From a virus (Duplodnaviria; Heunggongvirae; Uroviricota; Caudoviricetes): a DNA stretch of 33,212 nt. A program made the translations under genes and the position numbers. Positions 3,665-31,450 of the stretch are shown in pieces (the stretch's first letter is position 1; each line of letters begins with the position of its first letter). The DNA is taken from IMG/VR virus record IMGVR_UViG_2617270998_000002. The stretch is one strand, 5' to 3'. The notes below the pieces were generated by a model. That model was not told where the DNA came from and made no database searches. It saw only the letters and a list, made by a program, of their open reading frames with translations.

Positions 3665-6600
3665 TCAGCTGATACTGATGCCTGCGGTGGCTTTCTTCAT
3701 CACCACAACCAGCAAATCGCTGATACTTGCTGTGGGATACCAGTCATTTACCAGCCATGCTGACACCGAAAACTCCAGCGTCATGTGGCCGTGACCAGCA
3801 GGCATATCAATAACACCACTGTAAATCAGCGTATTATCCAGCGCGGTACGGTTATAAATTTCAGCACCATTTTTCTTCACTATCAGGCGGCATGAGGAGT
3901 AAATATCAGTATGCTCTCTCTCATGTTTAGCACCGCTGAATGCCACCGCCGGAATAACAATCTGCCGGTCAAACGGCTGATCGTCATAAATCCTGACGGT
4001 AATGGTCCCTGATGGCCACCGCTCCGGTGCCCGGGAGTCCCGCGGGAAAGCCTTACCCACTGTTTTGACAATATCGCCTTCAATCTGGTTGGCTGACAGT
4101 TTCCCTTTAATCTGACAGTTCTCATTTATCGTAACGTTGTTGAGCGTCCCGGAGTTCGCATTCACACTGCCACTGATATCTGCATTTTTAGCGGTCAGCT
4201 TTCCGTCCGGTGTCAGGGAAAATGCAGGAGGATTACCGCCGCTGGTAATGGTGGGAGCCGTCAGATATTTCAGGAACACTTCATTCATGAATATCTGATC
4301 ACCCTGACCAACAAACATCGGTTTTGTGTTGCCATTTGCAGGATTAATCATCGCAATCCTGTCTGCCGCCAGCAGCACCTGACTCTGCATGCCGTCGGGG
4401 GTGTTCTCAATACCGGCACCGATACCCGCGATATAAAGGCGTCCGTCCTGCATCTGCTGCAGCTTCACAGCCCACATGCTGTTCAGATTATTATTTGTAT
4501 CAACCTGAACCTTCTGTATCTGCTGGATCGCTGCACTCTGGTCTTCCAGTTTCTTATTGACGGTCTGTGTGATTTCATTGCTGACATCCGTAATGGATGT
4601 CCTGATTTCAGCCAGGTCAGGCGCAAGCTGACCGTTATCAATCTGCGTCCACAGCTCCTGAGCCAGATGGGTTTTCCCTATCTCGCCTTTGAAAAAATCC
4701 AGATAGCCGGATGCGTCATCACTCGGCTGACCAACAGCCTCCACGAATGCCGATTTGCCAACGGTGTTCACACTGCGAACGTAAAAATAATAATTATGGC
4801 CCGGCCTGATATTGATACTGGCGGCTATCCAGTACAGCGCCGTGCCAAGATAGCGTGCTGTGGTTTCAACCTGCCTGATATCGGTAATCCGCGTTTCCGA
4901 GAACCAGAACTCAAACTGTACCGTCGGATCATAAACCGCAAGATGCGGCGTGGCGGTTATCTGAAAATAGCCCGGCGTCAGCTCAATCCGCGACGGCGCT
5001 GCCGGTGCGGCAATCCGGAACGATACCGATGCCGGATCGCCCTGCTGTCCCCACGCATTTACCGCCCGGACCGTCAGCGTGTAACGCCCCAGCGCCAGTT
5101 GCCTGAAGCGGTATGTGGTTTCCGTCGTCCGGGCCGTGCTGACCAGCCGCTCACTGCCGTCATCCGCTGTTACGGTCAGACGGAGCAGGAAGCTCACGCC
5201 CTTCACCACCTTCGGCGTGTCCCAGCGCGCCAGCACCTGATACTCCCCGCTGTCTGCGGTGACTTCTGCGGTCAGGTGCTGCACCGCGGGCGGCGTGACG
5301 CCATTCACCGTGCCGCTCAGGTCGCCGTCAAAGTGCGCCCCGTTATCCACGATGGCTTCTTTTTCCGGTACATGCTGCACGGCGGTGATGGCATACGTGC
5401 CGCCGTCGTTCTCACGGATACTCACGCAGCGGAACAGGCGCTGGCGCAACGTCGGCAGCTTCAGCCCCCACACGCTGTATTCAGCAACACCGTCAGGAAC
5501 ACGGCTCACTTTCACCTTCACGCCGTCGGTGACGGACTGAACCTCCACGCTGACCGGATTGCCACTTCCGTCAACCAGGCTTATCAGCGTGGTACCGGAG
5601 GATGGCAGCGTGATTTCACGGTCGAGCGTCAGCGTCCGGGTCTGGCTGTTTACCGCCAGCACGCGCCCGCCGGTGCTGATACCGGCATAGTCATCATCGC
5701 AGATTTCAATGACATCGCCCGGTACATGGCGAAGCCCTTCTGCGCCGACGCTGAAATCCACGGTCTGCGTTTCCAGCAGTTCTGTTTTAATCAGCCACAG
5801 CCCGGCGCGGTGTGCCTGCCCCCGACTGGTACAGCCAAAGGCATCCATCTTCGTGACGTTACGACCGTAACGGGCAATGGCCTGCGTGTCCTCCACAAGC
5901 TCTGTCGCCGTCTCCCAGCCGTTATCCGGGTCAATCCAGTTCACCTCAACGGCATTATGACGGTCCTTCAGGGCACTGAAGCTGTAGCGGAACGGCGCGC
6001 CATCATCCGGCATCACCACATTACTGCGGTTATAGGTCCACACCTTATCCGACGGTCGGTCCTGCACGAACGTCAGCGTCTGCCCGTTCCATACCGGCAT
6101 ACAGCGCATCGCCGAGCAGAAATCACTGAGAACATCCCACGCCTTGCGCTGTGTGGTCAGGTAGGCATTACAGGTGATGCGCGGCTCCGTGCCACCAAAG
6201 CCATCCGGCACCGACTGGTCGCAATTCTGGCCGATGACATACAGCGCCCATTTGTCCACATCCGCCGCACCGAGACGCTTCCCCATGCCGTAGCGCGGAT
6301 GGGTCAGCATATCCCACAGACACCAGGCCATGTTGTTGCTGTATGCTGGCTTAAACGTTCCGTCCCAGATACCGCTGTATTGCCGCGTCTGCGGGTTATA
6401 GTTCGACGGCACCTGCAGAATGCGCCCGCGAAGATGATAATTACGGCTCACCTGCTGGCTGCCGAACTGTTCCGAGTCCACCTGCACGCCGACCAGTGCC
6501 GTGTTCGGGTAGCACTGTTTCACATCGATGATTTCGGTGTATGACGACCAGAGCGTTTTGTTCTGCAGCTGGTCTGTGGTGCTGTCCGGCGTCATTCTGC

Positions 6601-9530: not shown

Positions 9531-12500
9531 TACCGATATGCTCCACTTAACCGACCACCATCACGGGCCTGCTGTTGCATAAAGTCCGCTGCCGCTTTTT
9601 TCCCGAGGTCATAAACCACCTTCAGGGCAGCCGGACCTATCTGCCCGTTCGTGCCATCGTTATTGATCTCGATGTTGTACTGCGGGGCAAACATCGCCAT
9701 ACCTGAACCACCAATATCCGCCACAACCCCCAGCTTACCGTCAGCACCACGACGCAGTGGCAGAATGGCTTCAGGTCCCGCTTCCCCCATCACACCCGCG
9801 CCTTTTGCAAAAGCAAAAAACGTCGGACGGTTAACCACCGTGCCACTGTAACGACTCAAATCAGCAGACTGATAAATCCCCCCATTGGCATTCAGGGAAA
9901 GGCTGCTGAGATCAAATCCCAGTACACTGCCAATCCCTTTTATCGATTTCATCATGGTTGCCTGCGCCAGGATTTTCGCCATATCTGACAGCACAGAAGA
10001 GGTGAAGGATTTGAAATTGAGTTTGCCGGTAGTGACAAAAGTTGCCAGGCCATTTCCCATGTTGCTGAAGGCTGACGAGAACACCTGTTCTGCTGTTCCT
10101 GCCGTATTATCTGCATCCACGGTAAAATCCTGAAATGCACGCAGGACTCCGTTTTTCCAGTTACCCTGCACAACTTCAAGCTGTTGCCAGTAACGGCGAT
10201 TCTCATTCAGTTGTCGGTTCAGGCTCTCCGTCAGCGCCTGCTCGGCCTTTCTGTAGTCATCCGTGTTATATGTTCCTTTCTGCTCACTATCCCGCCTCAA
10301 CTGCTCCAGCTGTTGCTGGTATTTCTGGCGAAGACTCAGTTGTACCTGATATCGCTGCCGCTGCTGATCACCCATACCCACAGTGGCGATATCCAGGTCA
10401 TGTTGCTGACGCTGAGCGCGCTCTTCTTCAGCCAGTTGACTGGTCAGCTGAATTGTTTTTTTCTTCAGCTCGTTGAGTGCCGTCTGTTTCTGAAGCTCCT
10501 GCTGTTTTACATCCAGCAGCGTCAGTGCCTGAATCAGTTCATCTTTACGGGCCAGCACACTCTTTTCATCTGCCGTCAGTTTTTTCCCGTCCAGGTCGCT
10601 GATGCGCTGCTGCAGAGCCAGAAGCTGTTTATGCGCTTCTGTCATCCTTTCCGTGGCAATGCCTGCTGACTGTCTGGCAGCAGCAATCTGTCCTTCCACC
10701 TGTGCCTGTTGCTGACTGTACTGCAGCAATAACCGGGTGGCCTCATCATTACGGGGGTCGCGTGTTTTTTTCTTACCGGATGCCAGGGCTTTCTCGTAAC
10801 GTTCATTTTCACGTTGTATCGCCGCATCCCTGACAGCCTGATCGGCGTACTGCATGGAATTAATACGCGCAATTTCACGCTGATGTCGTGCTGCTTCCGT
10901 TTCATTCATCCGGTTCAGTGCAGCATTTTCAGCATTACGGCGTTTCTGTTGCTCCTGATAATTCCGCTCTGCCTGCTCTTTTGCATCCTGCAAATCCTTC
11001 TGGCGTTTTTTCTCCTGAAGCTCGTTAAGACGCTGCTGATCGTACTCAACCTGAGAAGATGATGCCGTCCAGGGGAGTCTTTTCGCCCGCGACACTTTCT
11101 CCTGTAAAGCGGAAATCTGTTCATCCAGCGAGTCTTCACGACCAATATTCATGGCCGCATCCCAGAAACGACTCCATAAATCAGACAGATACTTCAGCGT
11201 ACTGCCCAGCGCATTGAGGTTATTATCAATATCCGCAGTACGCCGACCGGTTTCCTCTGCCAGTGCAGACATGGCTATCCGTGCCGCATCACTGGACCGC
11301 CCCTGTTCCCCAAGGACGCGTATCTGCTCAAGCTGAGTGGCAGTAAGAAAATGCAGCTCATTGTCCAGAGCCTTCGCGGCATTTACAGGATCATCCTTCA
11401 GCCGCTTAAACTGATTTATGGTATCGCTGACCGACTGGCCAACCGATCGCTCCATCTGTGCGGCAGCTCTCGCCACCATACCGATATCGTTTCCACGAAA
11501 TGCACCACTCCCCACCACCTGAGCCAGCGCACCGGCTGCAGCATGTTGCGTAATACCATTCCCGGAAATAGCACGACTGAGCGTCCACAGCTGCCCGGCA
11601 GTGACTCCGGCATAATGCCCCGTCAGCGACAACTGGCGGTTAAATTCTTCCCCCTCCTTCTGACCATCATACCAGGCTTTACCCAGACCATAGACGGCCG
11701 CGGCAATACCGCCAATAACCCCGCCCAGCATCATGCCTTTCGGTGACATCAGTGTGTCTATCCATCCGGCACGGTTAGCCAGCGTTATCCCGGATCCCCT
11801 CAGCGCACCTAAATTGCCGCGAGCCAGTTCACCTATCAGAACGCCTATCTCCTGGCGGGCCGCTGCACTTTTCAGACCCAGCGAATGCGTGGCTTTTCCT
11901 GCCTGCTCCATTTTGCGGATATACACTTCTGCAGCACTGCTTACCCCCAGCTGGGCAGCCTTAGCACGAAGCAACTCAGAAGAAGAAAGATTCTGGCGGG
12001 TTGCCTGCTCTTTAAGCTGACGGATAAACGCCACTTTCTGTCGGGTAGCCTCTGCCTCAGCCTGCGTAAGAACACCGGTTTTCGCCGTAACCTCAGAAAT
12101 CAGCGCCAGATAATCCTGCTGACCAATCCCGCCACTGTTTCTGGCCTGTCGGATCTGCTGCTGAATACGCTGTAATTCCTGCAGTCCCGCACTGGCCTGT
12201 TTCACACTGTCAATCTGACGATAAAACGCGGCAGCCGCTTTATCCTGAGCCTCCGCCAGAGCCATGGCCTGCGCCTGTTCCTCGCGCATTTTCTGGCTCA
12301 GTGCCTCCATACGCTGGCGGGTTTGCTCCACCTCGCGGGCCATGCGTTCATGAGCCTGTGCGCTCTTCTCCACCGTCTGCGCATGGACGGATGCGGCTGT
12401 TGCAGCCGAAGAAGCCGCCTGCATTGTCTGCCGGGCGGCCTGAGTCTGACGCTCCATAAAACGCTGCATACGGGCAGAAGACCGTTCTGCATCGCTGGCT

Positions 12501-19253: not shown

Positions 19254-19471
19254 CAGAACCTCGCCAGCCGGTACCCGGGATGCCCCCGTCGTCGTGTAAT
19301 CAGAGCCGCAAGGCGGCGCTCCCACTCCTGCCGCCCCTGCCGGATCTCAGATAAGTTTTCCATGGTCATCTGCTGACCATTAAAGGTGACGGATTTTCCG
19401 TCCAGCACCGCCATTTCAGCTTCCGTATAACGCTGAATCATGGCTTCGATATCATTCTGGTTCATAACCAT
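19253..19471 (-). CDS. Head-tail joining protein gpW-like
   Basis: 72-aa ORF ending ...RRRGHPGYRLARF, like the lambda W C-terminus (...RRRGPAGFYV); located between terminase large subunit and portal. Confidence 0.75.
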   Translation of the reverse strand: MVMNQNDIEAMIQRYTEAEMAVLDGKSVTFNGQQMTMENLSEIRQGRQEWERRLAALITRRRGHPGYRLARF

Positions 19472-21564
19472 CCTCCGGAAGTCAGCCAGGGGTTAACATC
19501 GTCAGTTACTGTTTTCTTCCGTTTTTGTTTTTTAACAGGCGTGGATACCGGTTCCGGTGTGGGTGACAGTTCGGTACTGTCCGGGACACACTCCAGCCAG
19601 GTTTCCCGGCTCGCCCACTCCGGTGCATCCGGCCAGCGGATCTTTTCGTATCCATGCAGAATGACCAGAGCCTCGGCATACACCATCAGGTCAAAAGCTT
19701 CGTTGGCACCGCGACCTGGCTTACTCCATTTCCCGTCACTGCTCCGCTCTTCATACGTCAGTTCGTCGTAAAACCAACTCCCCAGCCAGTCAGGGAAATG
19801 CACATAGCCGGGACCTGGCGAGTCACGCCATAACGCGTTATTCACCCGGTCTTTCAGTGCATCCGTCTGAAGAAGCCAGAGCGGCACATCACCTGCGGCC
19901 TGCGCCCGTCGGCCCGTTCGTCCGGTGTTATCAGGGAATGTACGGGTGATCAGTTTTGCGCGCCGGATGCTGTCGCCCTTAAACAGGTAAATACGTTTAC
20001 CAAGGCCATCACGACGGCAACGACGCCAGAATTTATAGGCATTATCAGTGACCCCGTCTTCACCGCCGGAGTCCACCGCCATTGCCATCAGTCGCATTTG
20101 TTGAGAAGGATCGGAGGCCAGCGGCCAGCTTTTATGAAAAACATCCGTCAGCAGGACATCCCAGTCTTCCGGATAGCTGGCCGGATCAATTCGCTGGCTC
20201 TCCCCGTCGCTGTCACCGCGTAATGACTGCGTGATGTTGTAACGATCAATAATCCAGCGTTCGCCACGGCTGCCATAGCCCGTTACCTGAACCACAAAAC
20301 GGCGATGACGTCCCGCCTGCACATCCACTGTCGCCACAAGGAAATTAACGCCATCCGGCACACTGCGGGAAGGAACTGGCTCTGCCCGCTGCTCAAGCAG
20401 TTCACTTTTTCGTTGCTCCATGCTGGCGCGGGGAAGATAAGGTAATCCCCAGTCGGTATTGATAACCGTCTTGAGTGTTTCTTCACTTCCGGTTGTCTCG
20501 TATTCCTGTTCTGCAGTAAGCAGTTTGTAAACGAGTTGCGAGAGTGTCTGGTAAGCAGCTGCCGGACCCTCCATCCAGAATGACGCAATACGTGAGCGTC
20601 GGGGATCACCATAACGACTGCCATCCGCATTGATGGATTCACCATCCCGCAACCAGACCCCACGTCCGTTCAGCTCACGTTTTTGTTCAGGCATAATCCG
20701 TCCTGAACAGGAAGGACACTGAATATAAGCCGCCTCACTTGCCAGCACGGGATCGGCAATATCACGGAAACCAGCAACCACATCGCCGCAGGGCTGAAAA
20801 TACTCACCACAGTGTGGACAAGGCCAGTACCAGCGACGGCGATCGCCACGGTTATAGAGCGACAGTATCCCCGTGGTTGGTGGAGCCTCATGCGGTGAAG
20901 TCCGTCGCCATTTCACATCCTTCACATCCCTGCCGGGGGAACTCTCCACAAGCGTCATACCACTGGACATAAATGTTGTGGTACGTTTTGAGGCAAGAGA
21001 GAAAGCATCCCCCTCGCCATCAATATCTTCCGGAAAACGGTCATAATCCGTCAGCGCGACGCATTTATAATCTGATGAGGACATGATATTGACTGACGGC
21101 CAGCCGATTTTCAGGTAGTTACCAGCAAGGAATGTTCTGTCATAAACGTTGTTGTCATTTTTGTTCGGACTCAGGCGACTGACCACTTCCGGGCTGACGC
21201 GAAACGTTCTGGCGAGTCGTTTTTTGGAGTGTTCGCGGGCTTTTTCCTCCGTCATCTGTATGATCAGCATATCAGCAGGATCGCAAATCACGTTGTAAAT
21301 CACCCAGCCGTCAATCAGGCCGATAGTCTTGCCGGTTCGTGCCGGGCCAACAAATATCACTGCGTCGTATTCACGCGAGGCCAGGCAGTTCATCGGCTCA
21401 ATAACATACGGTGCCACCAGCGGATCCCACGGGACTGAGTTCCCTGCCCCCATGGGCACCCGCATATACTGAGCAACGGCATCAGCAACCCGCATTCGTC
21501 TCGGTGCGCGAAGGATATAACCTGAATCGGTTCGTGCTGCCTTTGCGGTTTCCTGATTCAGCAT
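19462..21564 (-). CDS. Terminase large subunit (lambda A family)
   Basis: 700-aa ORF; Walker A-like GPARTGKT, Zn-ribbon-like CPHCGEY...CPSC, nuclease domain; directly after the small subunit. Confidence 0.9.
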   Translation of the reverse strand: MLNQETAKAARTDSGYILRAPRRMRVADAVAQYMRVPMGAGNSVPWDPLVAPYVIEPMNCLASREYDAVIFVGPARTGKTIGLIDGWVIYNVICDPADMLIIQMTEEKAREHSKKRLARTFRVSPEVVSRLSPNKNDNNVYDRTFLAGNYLKIGWPSVNIMSSSDYKCVALTDYDRFPEDIDGEGDAFSLASKRTTTFMSSGMTLVESSPGRDVKDVKWRRTSPHEAPPTTGILSLYNRGDRRRWYWPCPHCGEYFQPCGDVVAGFRDIADPVLASEAAYIQCPSCSGRIMPEQKRELNGRGVWLRDGESINADGSRYGDPRRSRIASFWMEGPAAAYQTLSQLVYKLLTAEQEYETTGSEETLKTVINTDWGLPYLPRASMEQRKSELLEQRAEPVPSRSVPDGVNFLVATVDVQAGRHRRFVVQVTGYGSRGERWIIDRYNITQSLRGDSDGESQRIDPASYPEDWDVLLTDVFHKSWPLASDPSQQMRLMAMAVDSGGEDGVTDNAYKFWRRCRRDGLGKRIYLFKGDSIRRAKLITRTFPDNTGRTGRRAQAAGDVPLWLLQTDALKDRVNNALWRDSPGPGYVHFPDWLGSWFYDELTYEERSSDGKWSKPGRGANEAFDLMVYAEALVILHGYEKIRWPDAPEWASRETWLECVPDSTELSPTPEPVSTPVKKQKRKKTVTDDVNPWLTSGGWL

Positions 21565-22058
21565 TACTCCTCCCGCTGTAATTCCTCCTCATCATCCGCA
21601 CCTGCTTCGGTCACCCGCAGGGCTATCTGATCGCGCAGATCATCAATAATGGACTGAACACGGCTCACAGCGGCAGGGTGCAGACCGCAGTCACGTTCAA
21701 GAATATCCGGTAATGTCTCCAGCACCTGCACGACCGCTTTTGCCCAGATGGCAAACTCCCGTCTGACATCACTGGCCGGAATGAGTTGTGCCGTTTCCTG
21801 TTCGAACTTAAGACGCTCACGTTCAGACTGATACCAGGCTTTGCGCTCATGCGCGTCCATTTCGCCTTCTGCAACCGGCGGTGGTAATGCCAGAAATGCC
21901 GACACAATATCAACCACCCGATAAAGCTTGAGGTTGCTTTCATGCCCCCCTGCAACGGGTAGATTTTGCAGCCTTGCCGCAGCAGTCTGGCGATGTACAC
22001 CTGACAGAGCCGCCAGTTGACTGATATTCAGCGTCAGATTTTTTAACTCTCGATCCAT
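21564..22058 (-). CDS. Terminase small subunit (Nu1-like, N-terminal HTH)
   Basis: 164-aa ORF; N-terminal HTH-like LTLNISQLAALSGVHRQTAAARL; acidic C-terminus; immediately upstream of the large subunit and downstream of the candidate cos. Confidence 0.8.
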   Translation of the reverse strand: MDRELKNLTLNISQLAALSGVHRQTAAARLQNLPVAGGHESNLKLYRVVDIVSAFLALPPPVAEGEMDAHERKAWYQSERERLKFEQETAQLIPASDVRREFAIWAKAVVQVLETLPDILERDCGLHPAAVSRVQSIIDDLRDQIALRVTEAGADDEEELQREE

Positions 22059-22227
22059 ACCCGCTCCAGAATGTTTTAAACATGCATCTTGCGAACAACT
22101 TTAGGCAAACGGTGTTAGTGATGAACAAAAAACAATCAAAATCGACACCACAAAAATAAAACCACTGTAATATCAATACATTACAGTAGTGGTGATGACG
22201 AATGAAATTTCAAAAACTAGCCTTTTT

Positions 22228-22250
22228 CCGCGACGCTCCCGCCCCGTGGC
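22228..22250. other. Candidate cosN (cohesive end site)
   Basis: Minus-strand ACGGGGCGGGAGCGTCGCGG resembles lambda cosN (ACGGGGCGGCGACCTCGCGG, from memory) and sits about 180 bp upstream of the terminase small subunit start, as in lambda. Confidence 0.35.
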
Positions 22251-22610
22251 AGGGACCCCCACTGGGAGGACCCGACAGCCTGACAACCGTGACGAGCATC
22301 TGAAACAGAGCGTTACATAATGGCATGGGGATAATTCAGAAGGACATCACAGCATGCCCACACAAATTAGTGTGAGTGTCCTGTTTCTTACTACGCGCAG
22401 GACTGACGAGCATGAGGGGAAAATACGCGAACCGAAATGCCTTATCTTCAGAAATGCAGCCGGCATCCGAACTGGACGATATTGTAAATTCACCTAAATA
22501 CGAGGCATTGCTGTAGTTGAATTGCAGTACTGTATTAGCCTTACAGTGACAGAATACGATATTGACTCTGTCACTTGTGAAATGGTCAGAATGGTTAGCA
22601 GTTATGGTGA

Positions 22611-22817
22611 TCAGTCAACCACCAGGGAATAATCCTTCGTATTCTTATCGTGCTTTACTAACGCGGCCTCAATTGCCCTGAATGCTTCCAGAGATACTTG
22701 ATGTTCTATACATGCAATTACAACATCCGGGTAACTCATCGAAATGGTGCTATTAAGCATAGTTTTTACACGAACCTGCTCTTGGGAGGGGGCCTCAGTA
22801 CATTGATCTTTATGCAT
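22611..22817 (-). CDS. Small protein, YbcW-like (unknown function)
   Basis: 68-aa ORF in an AT-rich segment between the Rz/Rz1 end and cos, the slot where DLP12 carries ybcW (68 aa) next to ybcV; identity to YbcW not verified. Confidence 0.4.
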
Positions 22818-23001
22818 TTTGTCGCTCCATGCGTTTGTTCTTCACTTGTCGCTAAAAATATAACTTCAAATCTTTGAGCGTGGAAGTGTGGAAGTCACTG
22901 CGCGTTGATCTTGCATGCATCGGTCGTTTGTTTCCCCCCTGGCATATCAGAAAAACCAGGTTTTATAGCGGAATCAATACTATGTATTTACCACCTGACT
23001 T

Positions 23002-23031
23002 TTGACATAAATCATCAATAAAACATATAAA
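23002..23031 (+). promoter_or_regulatory. Sigma70-like promoter for the DUF1398 gene
   Basis: TTGACA (23002-23007), 18-nt spacer, TATAAA (23026-23031); about 70 nt upstream of the ATG at 23105. Confidence 0.5.
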
Positions 23032-23104
23032 GGTCAGACCAGATTGAAACGATAAAAACGATCTTGCAAACTACTCGCCCTCATATCATATGGAAGGTTT
23101 ATCT

Positions 23105-23515
23105 ATGGATCAGGTAGTCATTTTTAAACAAATATTTGATAAAGTTCGAAACGATTTAAACTATCAATGGTTTTATTCTGAGCTAAAACGTCACAATGTC
23201 TCACATTACATTTACTATTTAGCCACAGAGAATGTTCATATTGTATTAAAAAATGATAATACAGTGTTATTAAAGGGCCTAAAAAACATTGTGTCTGTCA
23301 AATTTTCAAAGGATAGGCATCTTATAGAAACGACCTCTAATAAGCTGAAATCCAGAGAGATCACATTTCAGGAATACAGAAGAAACCTTGCTAAAGCAGG
23401 AGTTTTTCGGTGGGTTACAAATATCCACGAACAAAAAAGATATTACTATACCTTTGATAATTCATTACTCTTTACTGAAAACATACAGAGCACATCACAA
23501 ATGTTTCCACACTAA
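23105..23515 (+). CDS. DUF1398-family protein (YbcV/YdfO-like), unknown function
   Basis: [42 protein letters not shown]...[30 protein letters not shown]; start at 23105 preferred over 23090 because GGAAGG lies 7 nt upstream; opposite strand to the late operon, in the bor-equivalent position. Confidence 0.6.
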
Positions 23516-23834
23516 ACCATAACGTCCGGTTTCTTCTACCCCAGCACCGGACTGGCTGACATGAAGAGCAACCACACGTTCAGTTGACGCGTTAATAACC
23601 CGGTGAACATCGTTTTTGATTATTCCCCCACACTCGCGCAGAAGGAGTTCCCCGTCAGGCTACAGTCATAATTAATGCAGGAGTACAGCGACGATACAGC
23701 GCACAGAAATAAATCAGACATCCATTGACTTCATAAAGACGGTGCATAGCATCGACAGGAGTAATTGCGTAAATTGAACTCTTGGCACACTTTAGCCACC
23801 GGCGAATCTTCAGCGGATTATCCTTGGCCGGTTT

Positions 23835-24314
23835 TTATCTGAGGCATTGTTCACGAATGTATAGCTGTGCCCCTTCCAGTTGTTTTTGCATTATTGTCAG
23901 TCGCGCTCTGAGGGTGAAATAATCCCGCTCAGCGGTGTCTTCCAGTCGGGGGGCGGCTGCATTATCCACGCCGGAGGCGGCGGTGCCTTCACGCACGGAC
24001 GAACAGACTGCCTTGATGCGCAACCGACGATGACCAGCGGCAACATCATCACGCAAAGCATCATTTTCAGCCTTCGCATCAGCTAACTCCTTCAGGTATT
24101 TTGCATCGAGTGCAGCAACATCACGCTGGCGTATCTGCATGTCAGTAATGATTGCGGTCGCCTGGTTGAGTTTTTCCGTCACATTATCGCGTTGCGCTTT
24201 GTAGGTAATGGCATTATCACGGTAATGATTAACAGCCCATGACAGGCAGACGATGATGCAGATAACCAGAGCATAAATAATCGCGGCAACTCTGCTCACT
24301 GCTCTATCCCCCAA
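23835..24314 (-). CDS. Rz: i-spanin Rz
   Basis: ORF with N-terminal TM ([35 protein letters not shown]) and coiled-coil ...[30 protein letters not shown]...; lambda Rz-like. Confidence 0.85.
23897..24079 (-). CDS. Rz1: o-spanin Rz1 (embedded in Rz, +1 frame)
   Basis: 60-aa [23 protein letters not shown]... with lipobox (VGC) and proline-rich ...[26 protein letters not shown]; wholly within Rz. Confidence 0.8.
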
Positions 24315-24829
24315 CAGGCTAATGCGCTCTCCTGATCACGACGAATAACCTGACCGTAACAGTTATTTGAACGAAGGCGGCAATCGCGCCCCCTGTCCTT
24401 AATCCACCAGCGAATCGCCTCGCAGGCACCTTTACGATCACCTGCATTCAGCCGCTTATAAAATGTCGACGGAAAACACTTACCGGGGCCAATGTTATAG
24501 GGACAAAATGACGCGATACCCGCTTTCTGGGGTTCGGTCAGCGGCACTTTAATATTGCGCTCCACCCATGCCAGCGCCTTATCGCGTTCAATGGCATTAA
24601 CCTGAGCGCATTTTTCCTTCGTCAGTTTCATGCCCGGAATAACAGGTTTACCATCCACCATCGTGGCACCACGACAGATGGTCCATATGCCGGAACCATC
24701 GCGGTATGCCGTAGTGTGGTTACCCTCTTTTTCATCCAGAAACTGGTCAAGTATTTGAGGAGCAGACGCGCCTGCAGCAATCAGCGCCAGAACCGCAGCT
24801 GACAGGCCGTATTTGATTTTTGCGCTCAT
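24296..24829 (-). CDS. SAR endolysin (T4-lysozyme-like muramidase with N-terminal signal-anchor-release domain)
   Basis: N-terminal weakly hydrophobic Gly/Ala-rich segment ([18 protein letters not shown]) then a Glu...Asp...Thr triad context ([22 protein letters not shown]); P21 R-like. Confidence 0.9.
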
Positions 24830-24884: not shown

Positions 24885-25199
24885 CTAACAACCTGTAATC
24901 GAGTTATCAGAACTGTTAATTTTTATGGTATACCGCGCCTCTGAACAGGGGCGCGTTTCTGGCAACAGCTCGTCCCCTTCACATAACCCGGCAGCAACAT
25001 CCAGGAAGACCTGTCTGATGCTCCTTCTGGCTGCTGCCTCATAAAACTCCAGCGCGGCACCTTCAACACGGTCCAGCGAGATGTCCAGGTCAAAAATTTC
25101 ACCGTCAAAGCGTTTTTTGTCCCGTAACGCTAAAGTTACCGTAACTTTATTCTCAAAATTGCGGATCCCTTTCACAATCAGTTCATATTTTTGAGTCAT
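24885..25199 (-). CDS. Small protein inserted between holin and endolysin (YdfR-like, DUF1327-type), unknown function
   Basis: 104-aa ORF with GGAGAG ribosome binding site; same slot as ydfR between essQ and rrrQ in Qin; family assignment from memory. Confidence 0.45.
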   Translation of the reverse strand: MTQKYELIVKGIRNFENKVTVTLALRDKKRFDGEIFDLDISLDRVEGAALEFYEAAARRSIRQVFLDVAAGLCEGDELLPETRPCSEARYTIKINSSDNSITGC

Positions 25200-25203
25200 T
25201 GAA

Positions 25204-25419
25204 TTACTCTCCCCGTGCAGCCTTACGCTTGTCTTCTTTAATCTTGAAATAAAGGTTTGTCAGGTACGTCAGCAGGCCAAATACCAGGCTACCCAGCACA
25301 CCTATTGCTGCCCACTGTGAGGGCGTGACTTTATCGAGCAGCTGTAAAAACCAGTAGCCAGCACTGCCTGCGGAGGTGCCGTAGGCAATGCCTGTTGAAA
25401 TTTTGTCCATGGATTTCAT
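25204..25419 (-). CDS. Pinholin (S21-like) with dual start motif
   Basis: [71 protein letters not shown] (71 aa); Met1 and Met4 give antiholin and holin starts; strong GGAGGTGA ribosome binding site; the track ORF extends further upstream (25476). Confidence 0.85.
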
Positions 25420-25522
25420 AGCCTCACCTCCGCACGGAACGGATGGCATAGTTATTATGTGTAGGCTTCCAGACACATCAATCAGAGCCTTAATTGATAT
25501 ATATGCTGGAGACGATGCAATA

Positions 25523-25670: not shown

Positions 25671-26066
25671 CTAACCTCGCATGTCAAAGCCAGATTTCTG
25701 AAAATCTCTGTAGACTTCCGGATTGTTGAAGGCCGGAAATTTGGCTTTACGAGCTGCGGACTTTATCGCTTCGCAATAGGCTTTATCACCGTTACTGGTA
25801 GATATTTTTAACGCCGTGCCATCCTGAGAGAATTCCATATGCAACCTGCATTTTTTCCCTTTCCAGTTATGCGGCTCATCAAGTTTGGCATTAATTGCAG
25901 CTCTGATTCCCCGCGCTTGCGCCCCCCATTCATCCTGATCATCCCAGCGTCCTGAACTGCAACTACCTGTAGCAGTAGTTTTGTGGCAATCTGAAGGGTG
26001 TAAAGGTGTGCATCCCGCAACAAAACCGACCCAAAAAGTCAACATAACGATTTTCTTTAATCCCAC
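25671..26066 (-). CDS. Lipoprotein with TolA domain III-like C-terminal domain (copy B)
   Basis: Signal peptide plus lipobox (MLTFWVGFVAGC, +2 Thr); C-terminus ...GKKCRLHMEFSQDGTALKISTSNGDKAYCEAIKSAARKAKFPAFNNPEVYRDFQKSGFDM shares the pattern of TolA domain III and of copy A. Confidence 0.6.
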   Translation of the reverse strand: MGLKKIVMLTFWVGFVAGCTPLHPSDCHKTTATGSCSSGRWDDQDEWGAQARGIRAAINAKLDEPHNWKGKKCRLHMEFSQDGTALKISTSNGDKAYCEAIKSAARKAKFPAFNNPEVYRDFQKSGFDMRG

Positions 26067-26216: not shown

Positions 26217-26645
26217 TCAGGGTTTAAAATCCAGCACCCCATTTTGAAATACTTTATATACTTCCGGCGAAGGGGGGGCAGGTATATCAGCATTCTTTAT
26301 CGCATTCATCGCTTCACGACATAAATCGAGGTCTCCACTTTCTCTTTTAACCTCCAGTAGAAGGCCATTCGGGGCCATATGCATTCTCAGTGTACACTCT
26401 TTTCCTGAATACTTACTCGCATCCCCGAACTGTTTTTCGATGGCGCTCTTGATTTGATGGGCATACAGACGGATATCCTCACTAACATCAGAAGTACGTT
26501 CAGATGAACTCACATACTGTGTCTCTATTGCTTTATCGGAGTAATATGATGTACGGTCATGATAATTTGTCGATACAGCATCAGTGCACCCGATAATAAT
26601 CCCACTAATAATCAACGTAAGAATTGATGCGCTACGAAAACCCAT
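26217..26645 (-). CDS. Lipoprotein with TolA domain III-like C-terminal domain (copy A)
   Basis: Signal peptide plus lipobox (ILTLIISGIIIGC, +2 Thr); C-terminus QIKSAIEKQFGDASKYSGKECTLRMHMAPNGLLLEVKRESGDLDLCREAMNAIKNADIPAPPSPEVYKVFQNGVLDFKP closely parallels the E. coli TolA C-terminus as recalled (...GKTCTLRIKLAPDGMLLDIK...IPKPPSQAVYEVFKNAPLDFKP); GAGGAAAA ribosome binding site. Confidence 0.65.
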   Translation of the reverse strand: MGFRSASILTLIISGIIIGCTDAVSTNYHDRTSYYSDKAIETQYVSSSERTSDVSEDIRLYAHQIKSAIEKQFGDASKYSGKECTLRMHMAPNGLLLEVKRESGDLDLCREAMNAIKNADIPAPPSPEVYKVFQNGVLDFKP

Positions 26646-27178
26646 TTTTCCTCACATATGTCATATAGTAAAGGATTATATATACCGTTGTTTTGGACGC
26701 TCAAACAGCGAATCAGATCAAATAAAACGCACATTTGTTAACATTTACACAAAGTCTGCGTGGGATATTCTGAAAGAATATCCATAATGTGGAGAGAATC
26801 TATTGAAGTGCATGGTGCCGGGTGCCTCCCGGTGAATTCAGTACCAGCACCTGAATCCGCGATTATCCCATATACCTACTCGCTGATTGCCCCTCCGCAC
26901 AGGGGGATTCACCATGCCAGTTTCTTTTAACAAACTCCCCGCAAACCAGAGAACAGTCAACCGCCTGAATTGTGAAGTATTTAAAAATTTCTCCCGCTAA
27001 CTGATACCCGGCTAACAGTCTGGCGTTTTCTTTTTCAGCAACGGGAAAGCAACAACCACCACCCCCGCCACCAGCACACCGTCAGCCAGTACTGACATTA
27101 TCCGGCTGCTGCAATGCCATTCACAAAAACAGTAAGCAATCACTTTTTACCGTAACAGGTGATAATCCAGATATGTAT

Positions 27179-27642: not shown

Positions 27643-27719
27643 TGGCGCGCTGTACTGGATTCGAACCAGTGACCGATTGCTTAGAAGGCAATTGCTCTGT
27701 CCGGCTGAGCTAACAACGC
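27643..27719 (-). tRNA. tRNA-Arg (anticodon UCU)
   Basis: Minus strand GCGTTGTTAGCTCAGCCGGACAGAGCAATTGCCTTCTAAGCAATCGGTCACTGGTTCGAATCCAGTACAGCGCGCCA; anticodon loop CTTCTAA; T-loop GGTTCGAATCC; encoded CCA; resembles argU. Confidence 0.85.
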
Positions 27720-27824: not shown

Positions 27825-27900
27825 TGGTGGCCCTTGCTGGATTTGAACCAGCGACCTGGCGATTATGAGTCGCTCGCTCTCACCACTGAGCTAAAGGACC
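27825..27900 (-). tRNA. tRNA with CAU anticodon, Ile2 (lysidine) type, ileX/ileZ-like
   Basis: Minus strand GGTCCTTTAGCTCAGTGGTGAGAGCGAGCGACTCATAATCGCCAGGTCGCTGGTTCAAATCCAGCAAGGGCCACCA; anticodon loop CTCATAA; very similar to E. coli ileX as recalled; encoded CCA. Confidence 0.8.
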
Positions 27901-31112: not shown

Positions 31113-31268
31113 TTACTCCTCAGGTTCGTAAGCTGTGAAGACAGCGACCTCCGTCTGGCCGGTTCGGATTCGTACCTCGCAGAGGTCTTTCCTCGTTACC
31201 AGTGCCGTCACTATGACGGTTAAACAGATGACGATCAGGGCGATTAACATCGCCTTTTGCTGCTTCAT
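31113..31268 (-). CDS. hokD: Hok/Gef-family type I toxin (HokD/RelF-like)
   Basis: MKQQKAMLIALIVICLTVIVTALVTRKDLCEVRIRTGQTEVAVFTAYEPEE (51 aa), which I recognise as HokD; AAGGAG ribosome binding site; the track ORF extends 19 codons upstream in frame (31325). Confidence 0.8.
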   Translation of the reverse strand: MKQQKAMLIALIVICLTVIVTALVTRKDLCEVRIRTGQTEVAVFTAYEPEE

Positions 31269-31450
31269 AGCCTGCTTCTCCTTGCCTTTCGGCACGTAAG
31301 AGGCTAACCTACATGTGTCTAGCATGAAATTGGCCTCAGATTAATGTTAAGCGTCTTGCAGGACGCGTAATGTTAACTGGGGCTTTTCTCTATCTGCCGT
31401 TGGTGTTCATGCCCGAGGCAGATAGCCTCAAGCACCCGCAGCAATTTTAC

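Follow-up and report, generated by a model that had tools for sequence, protein, structure and literature searches.

The 33,212-nt stretch of DNA analysed here in its full length (IMG/VR record IMGVR_UViG_2617270998_000002; hereafter the window) is an Escherichia coli lambdoid prophage, and our subject is a locus of two divergent genes near the cos end of its late operon. On the plus strand, a gene at 23105-23515 codes for a 136-aa DUF1398 protein; on the minus strand, which is also that of the late operon, a gene at 22611-22817 codes for a 68-aa protein of the YbcW/lambdap79 family. The chromosome of strain BKQWHE is 100% identical to the window across 22400-23800. The late operon runs along the minus strand in the order holin (25204-25476), YdfR/DUF1327 (24885-25199), lysozyme (24296-24829), Rz (23835-24314), this locus, the DUF1441 small terminase (21564-22058) and the large terminase TerL (19462-21564). 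The coordinates of the lysis and terminase genes thus place the two genes between the lysis cassette, with lysozyme and Rz, and the cos/terminase end. An initial annotation made from the letters alone had proposed this placement, along with the 68-aa minus-strand frame, a DUF1398-type gene opposing the late operon, an AT-rich segment and YbcV/YbcW-like names; all of these hold, with the refinement that the DUF1398 product is nearer to YdfO than to YbcV. It is essentially certain that the DUF1398 gene is a YdfO orthologue and that the 68-aa gene is a homologue of YbcW/lambdap79.

The full plus-strand open reading frame (ORF) spans 23090-23515 (141 aa) when read from an alternative in-frame ATG at 23090; we favour the ATG at 23105, which has the ribosome-binding site GGAAGG (23092-23097) 7 nt upstream and coincides with the RefSeq start. 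A Pfam search matched the product to PF07166 along the entire profile (positions 1-119 of 119; E=1.7e-46, 157.6 bits, with a gathering cut-off of 22 bits). Its amino acid identity to the equally long YdfO of the K-12 Qin prophage is 96% over 135 residues (96.3% by tblastn), as against 78% to YbcV of DLP12, and the nuclear magnetic resonance (NMR) structure of YdfO (PDB 2HH8) was recovered by phmmer with residues 1-135 aligned (E=5.1e-85). The 16.5-kDa product has a grand average of hydropathy (GRAVY) of -0.56 and a highest 19-aa hydropathy of 0.48, and no signal peptide and no hydrophobic or membrane segment was detected in it. In a diverse alignment of the DUF1398 family only L27, T41 and G99 are invariant, with Y35, N43, A96, W103 and Y114 near-invariant; no acidic, histidine, cysteine or lysine residue is conserved, and this lack of a catalytic-type residue suggests a function in binding, not in catalysis. 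The protein is probably soluble, cytoplasmic and non-catalytic. A search for domain fusions yielded none that was informative, the homologues being all single-domain, and an NCBIfam search of the two products of the locus returned nothing meaningful. A single-sequence phmmer match to the Parafibromin N-terminal domain (E=0.005) vanished when the family profile was used and was judged to be due to chance.

These properties bear directly on the notion that the DUF1398 product is a structural or envelope protein, which draws on the legacy name 'putative envelope protein' and on the PHROG 413 label 'head protein' but which we consider hardly credible. The hydrophilic product without a hydrophobic segment leaves both labels unsupported, YdfO was solved as a soluble protein, the gene is transcribed against the late operon, lambdap78 scored as non-essential in a CRISPR interference (CRISPRi) screen (PMC10695390), and lone homologues exist on chromosomes outside prophages. 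PHROG 413 itself, which holds YdfO, YbcV and lambdap78 and is filed under 'head and packaging', looks like a case of annotation drift, its label being doubtful in view of gene orientation, dispensability and the non-phage homologues.

Compared with lambda and DLP12, the ratio of nonsynonymous to synonymous substitution rates (dN/dS) is 0.19-0.23 for the DUF1398 gene; for the 68-aa gene it is 0.36-0.40, and the synonymous divergence (dS) of the comparisons for both genes ranges from 0.25 to 0.58. These values indicate purifying selection on both genes. Their base composition departs from that of the surroundings: the GC fraction is 0.285-0.34 across 23000-23500 and 0.41-0.44 over the 68-aa gene, while the phage genes on either side have about 0.5 or more. 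One might see in the segment a functionless cargo that persists only through its linkage to cos and through prophage recombination, given that no phenotype is known and that the region, a hotspot of recombination, has mosaic junctions, of which one falls exactly at AGGTCAGACC. We deem this quite unlikely, as dN/dS is about 0.2 over a dS of about 0.5, the ORFs are intact in thousands of genomes and in other genera the family is conserved at about 35% identity.

Upstream of the DUF1398 gene, a sigma-70-like motif is directly readable on the plus strand (23002-23031) as TTGACA (23002-23007), an 18-nt spacer and TATAAA (23026-23031), and the pattern TTGACA-N16-18-TATAA matches the window once with 0.01 matches expected. 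The near-consensus promoter of the initial annotation is thus present as a string, but of its two hexamers only TTGACA is conserved, and this is at the same time half of an FNR-type site. A consensus sigma-70 scan did not call the motif at 23002-23031, owing to the missing final T of the second hexamer. In lambda and DLP12, TTGACA is kept and TATAAA is replaced by ACAAGG and ACAAAG, respectively; the TATAAA is specific to the lineage of the window. The stretch TTGACATAAATCATCAA is common to the ybcW-containing types in an alignment of the window, lambda, DLP12 and Qin.

A conserved leader block begins within the last position of this motif with AGGTCAGACCAGATTGAA (23031-23048) and extends on the plus strand to the start codon (23031-23104), taking in the ribosome-binding site. 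The window, lambda, HK630, DLP12 and Qin share the 18-mer AGGTCAGACCAGATTGAA without a mismatch, as do 58 of the 80 IMG/VR loci with YdfO-type proteins that made up our neighbourhood survey (75 with upstream sequence and 5 that end at the DUF1398 gene); overall it occurs in 64 loci. In the Qin-type loci the sequence upstream of it is coding sequence of ynfO, a DUF3950 gene, and the block itself encodes the YnfO C-terminus, QVRPD-stop; a block that starts inside the C-terminal codons of another gene marks a recombination (mosaic) junction. No conserved RNA structure is supported in the leader (-5 kcal/mol, no covarying pairs), and an Rfam scan of 22000-24000 gave no match even at E<=1. At the other end of the gene, a stem ACCGGC...GCCGGU with a 3' U-run overlapping the stop codon of Rz (23798-23836, plus strand) is a candidate weak terminator of the DUF1398 transcript. 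At -15.8 kcal/mol (z=0.08) it folds no better than its shuffles and was not called by the terminator scan, and none of the hairpins 3' of the DUF1398 gene is more stable than shuffled sequence.

Published data on the control region come from its homologues in cryptic prophages. An FNR-box-like palindrome, TTGAC-ATAA-ATCAT (23002-23015), overlaps the -35 hexamer. In DLP12, the site predicted under a chromatin immunoprecipitation-microarray (ChIP-chip) peak of FNR with the name 'ybcW' reads 5'-TGTTGATGATTTATGTCAAATATT-3' (PMC1802558), which is the reverse complement of TTGACATAAATCATCAA of the window; this identity makes the supposed -35 TTGACA one half of an FNR-type palindrome. Just downstream, inside the conserved leader, lies a PdhR-box-like palindrome, GGTCAGACC (23032-23040, plus strand), which matches the reported PdhR site and 9 of 14 consensus positions. 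The boxes identified by genomic systematic evolution of ligands by exponential enrichment (SELEX) are AtcTGGTctgACCtcTT for ybcV/ybcW and AAcaGGTcagACCAgaT for ydfO, and in a pdhR mutant the ybcV and ybcW mRNAs fell 10-fold and 8.9-fold, respectively (PMC7660256). ArcA has been reported as a direct activator of ybcW (PMC3798270), and ybcV (1.67) and ybcW (1.79) are listed as up-regulated in microaerobic versus aerobic growth (PMC8910356). The imidazolium ionic liquid [C2mim]Cl raised ydfO 116-fold by quantitative PCR in a growth-phase-dependent manner (PMC4077768). The cryptic-prophage homologues ybcV, ybcW and ydfO are thus transcribed in the prophage state (PMC7660256, PMC8910356, PMC4077768).

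As for its setting, the locus is already known: it is an ordinary, catalogued accessory module of the right end of lambdoid prophages, the same as lambdap78/lambdap79 of lambda and ybcV/ybcW of DLP12. Of 5426 complete E. coli genomes, 3583 matched the query 22400-23800, and in 1315 of these at least 80% of it was covered at one place; the lambda right end (46867-48090, the lambdap78/lambdap79 region) aligned with 80.5% nucleotide identity over 88% of the query. The module of DLP12 and lambda likewise consists of two divergent genes between the lysis cassette and cos, is about 80% identical in nucleotide sequence across the segment, and keeps the TTGACA/FNR-like element and the GGTCAGACC box. 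The two differ from the window in having bor between the module and Rz, to which DLP12 adds ylcI, in the -10 hexamers given above and in lacking an 8-bp duplication described below. The Qin locus shares with the window a leader that is identical from AGGTCAGACC to the ATG and an orientation opposed to the lysis genes, but there a co-directional ynfO lies upstream and gnsB downstream, in place of the divergent ybcW-like gene and Rz of the window.

The neighbouring bor gene merits comparison, for the initial annotation had put the locus in the position of bor. Lambda bor is a classical lysogenic-conversion moron that is expressed from the prophage. Like the DUF1398 gene, it lies in the gap between the same operons and runs counter to the late genes; it has a promoter of its own (annotated in HK630), for which the DUF1398 gene has a candidate. 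The proteins, on the other hand, are unrelated, Bor being a lipoprotein and the DUF1398 product having no signal sequence. The opposite strand and the shared gap therefore stand, but in lambda, HK630 and DLP12 bor sits between Rz and this module, so that the module coexists with bor instead of replacing it, and the position is more accurately that of lambdap78/lambdap79. In the window, the site that bor occupies in lambda and DLP12 is a non-coding spacer (23516-23834) by alignment to lambda, whose homology extends past the DUF1398 stop codon and ends near 23705. A tblastn search of the window with BorD found no homologue near the locus, the best match (E=0.089) being at 10025-10132. The annotated bor promoter of HK630, TGGACA-15-TACAAT, has its counterpart in CAGTCA (23653-23658)...TACAGC (23674-23679), and bor is thus deleted here, with only a decayed relic of its promoter left. 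Outside E. coli, a locus of Kluyvera genomosp. 1 (L025) has a chromosomal DUF1398 gene (4001-4429, 34% identity) followed by a co-directional bor homologue (5273-5569, 50% identity to BorD), with no lysis or terminase gene within 4 kb; the linkage of DUF1398 and bor seen in lambda hence exists outside a recognisable prophage as well.

The smaller gene of the locus matched PHROG 657 over its whole length (E=1.6e-46, positions 1-68 of 68) and its product is 79% identical in amino acid sequence to K-12 YbcW. The product is acidic (isoelectric point (pI) 5.5), with three helices predicted at low confidence, and the approximately 50 C-terminal residues of the family are nearly invariant among homologues; Pfam, NCBIfam and PDB searches with it returned no relatives. 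Lying just upstream of cos, this gene would be readable by late transcripts running toward cos. Targeting lambdap79 by CRISPRi in lambda gave an 'essential' score, whereas the literature holds the gene to be non-essential (PMC10695390); our interpretation is that the knockdown blocks, in a polar manner, the late transcription that runs on through cos to the head genes. A bioRxiv preprint of September 2026 entitled 'A widespread NADase domain links bacterial immunity with human TEP1' (10.64898/2026.09.04.749371) matches the phrases 'expression of lambdap79' and 'lambdap79 is an activator'. Their context is a DUF4062/NIR NADase defence system.

Could the two divergent genes form one functional system (a toxin-antitoxin, defence or anti-defence pair, for instance)? 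As divergent neighbours they have a common 272-bp control region, the two DLP12 homologues change in concert on pdhR deletion and under microaerobiosis, and the lambda homologue of the small partner is called an activator in the matched phrases of the defence preprint. Against this, the survey found the layout nohA< ynfO> DUF1398>, complete or truncated, with ynfO instead of ybcW in 69 of the 75 informative loci, while ybcW is carried by six; the layout of the window, TerS< YbcW< DUF1398> Rz<, occurs in 5 of the 80 loci, and ynfO and ybcW occur together in one. The distant DUF1398 genes are solitary, and the PADLOC defence models gave only noise-level matches (E=0.013 and 0.018). A two-gene system is accordingly very unlikely in our view. 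The constant elements are the DUF1398 gene and its position, and the neighbours ybcW, ynfO/ylcI, bor and gnsB are variable; the 'pair' of the initial annotation is no obligate unit, and the 68-aa gene is separate from the DUF1398 gene and dispensable.

Two probable sources of spurious variants came to light in these families. In the Qin-type loci (L004 3757-4458, which is K-12 Qin, and IMG/VR L026-L105), ydfO follows ynfO in frame, with one TGA and 57 nt between them, and a 233-aa 'DUF3950-DUF1398 fusion' (P0001, 761 members) in which the ynfO TGA is read as W is probably a gene-calling artefact. Further, dozens of slightly differing lambdap78/p79 variants of odd lengths (P0016-P0120, P0142-P0240) stem from ENA contigs of about 3.5 kb, which we take to be the 3.6-kb nanopore lambda control amplicon from the lambda right end, assembled with many errors; they inflate the apparent diversity of both families.

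Beyond the lambdoid prophages, YcgX and lone chromosomal DUF1398 genes of Enterobacteriaceae belong to the same Pfam family and share its size and single-domain build at 33-45% identity, but are flanked by housekeeping or island genes and lack the lysis-cos context. The lone genes of Kluyvera, Klebsiella, Salmonella diarizonae, Raoultella and Pseudocitrobacter show 33-38% identity, with one truncated locus at 29%, and none of them in these five genera has lysis or terminase neighbours, which implies that the protein works independently of the phage lytic machinery. This phyletic pattern is relevant to the possibility that the DUF1398 product serves the phage, for example in excluding superinfecting phages, in counter-defence, or in modulating lysis or the packaging near cos. 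Such a role would suit a gene that always sits between the lysis genes and cos across lambdoid phages of differing immunity and packaging types, and whose neighbour has a homologue named as a defence activator in the phrases from the preprint. We nonetheless hold it to be rather unlikely: lambdap78 is non-essential for plaque formation, related genes occur in non-phage chromosomal contexts, known defence families are unmatched, and the orientation and GC content are those of a moron. A more elaborate variant would link a trigger to a counter-measure, with the YbcW/lambdap79-like protein as the phage product sensed by the NIR (DUF4062) NADase defence and the host-regulated DUF1398 product modulating that or another immunity or metabolic axis under low oxygen; this is a long shot.

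The explanation we prefer, with a confidence in its mechanistic part only slightly above even, is that the DUF1398 gene is a host-regulated moron that gives a conditional benefit. The moron-like character suggested by the initial annotation is borne out by the position between operons, the plus-strand orientation against a minus-strand late operon and a GC content unlike that of the flanks; a promoter and terminator of its own are present as candidates, namely the promoter-like motif with its non-canonical, unconserved -10 and the weak terminator. The gene is AT-rich and horizontally mobile and lies between Rz and cos in opposition to the late operon; according to this explanation, its transcription would proceed in the prophage state and would depend on its own control region, not on the late programme of the phage. 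By analogy with the DLP12 region, which is bound or influenced by the host's respiratory and metabolic regulators FNR, PdhR and ArcA, host-state-driven expression is what we consider most likely here, and it would track the oxygen or respiratory state and stress of the host rather than phage induction. The DUF1398 product would then bind a host partner, with neither a catalytic nor an envelope role, and we infer that the lysogen would gain a conditional fitness or stress benefit from it.

Several considerations weigh against a host-regulated moron. The -10 without its final T, absent from lambda and DLP12, means that the true start site may be elsewhere, and in the Qin-type loci the entire -35 region is replaced by ynfO coding sequence. 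Within the window, FNR-type motifs are not above chance (18 matches, 17.3 expected) and a PdhR consensus search showed no enrichment above chance, such that the FNR and PdhR sites take their weight from sequence identity to the probed DLP12 and Qin loci and not from motif statistics. Further, AT-rich foreign DNA is often bound promiscuously and non-productively, and the FNR study itself notes targets with little effect of FNR on transcription (PMC1802558). With regard to the protein, its basic charge is not kept across the DUF1398 family (pI 5.8-9.75), and the structure models of the product are too poor for a functional hint. No phenotype is convincingly linked to any DUF1398 protein: a claim of a role for YdfO in oxidative stress is second-hand (PMC4077768), and the main text of its source (PMC3105296) does not contain ydfO.

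The remaining features of the window are of a more local nature. The initial annotation had pointed to a tandem repeat in the divergent intergenic region, and an 8-bp duplication, GTGGAAGT x2 (GTGGAAGTGTGGAAGT), is indeed directly readable at 22880-22895, 63-78 nt upstream of the ATG of the 68-aa gene. It is confined to loci with the architecture of the window (L002, L054-L056, L058 and L060) and absent from lambda, DLP12 and L053; rather than a conserved element, it is most simply a lineage-specific slippage duplication with no functional support. On the minus strand at 22161-22190, between the presumed cos region and the start codon of the small terminase, a hairpin with a 13-bp stem followed by a T-run came up as terminator-like in the terminator scan and might belong to the packaging site or to an antitermination-dependent terminator. 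Directly upstream of the holin, the slot of toxin genes in Shiga toxin (Stx) phages, two small lipoprotein-like ORFs on the minus strand (25671-26066 and 26217-26645) combine lipobox-like motifs (FVAGC and IIIGC) with TolA C-terminal domains (Pfam PF06519, E=4e-15 and 2.4e-23); they could act as decoys for TolA-dependent colicins or filamentous phages. Further along the minus strand, a full-length match to the small RNA family STnc100 (26756-26946; RF02076, 114 bits) lies between these ORFs and two tRNA genes (27646-27719 and 27828-27900), which are downstream of the antiterminator gene and labelled tRNA-Arg and tRNA-Ile by RefSeq in the identical genome. Finally, a full-length match to the sok antitoxin RNA (31263-31437, minus strand; Rfam RF01794, 115 bits) implies that the prophage carries a type I toxin-antitoxin locus of the hok/sok type.

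Being present in lambda and in about two-thirds of complete E. coli genomes, the locus carries little weight in itself. Its remaining value lies in DUF1398 as a very common prophage family that is still without an assigned function, even with three paralogues in K-12 alone and a structure on record since 2006. Since FNR, ArcA and PdhR have all been reported at or near the control region of the homologues, whether expression in lysogens depends on oxygen would be an informative question. The 68-aa gene, for its part, may gain interest if the activation of an NADase defence by lambdap79, as worded in the phrases of the preprint, is true; and should the linkage of a trigger and a counter-measure be correct, a gene found in most E. 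coli genomes would acquire a concrete immune-related role.

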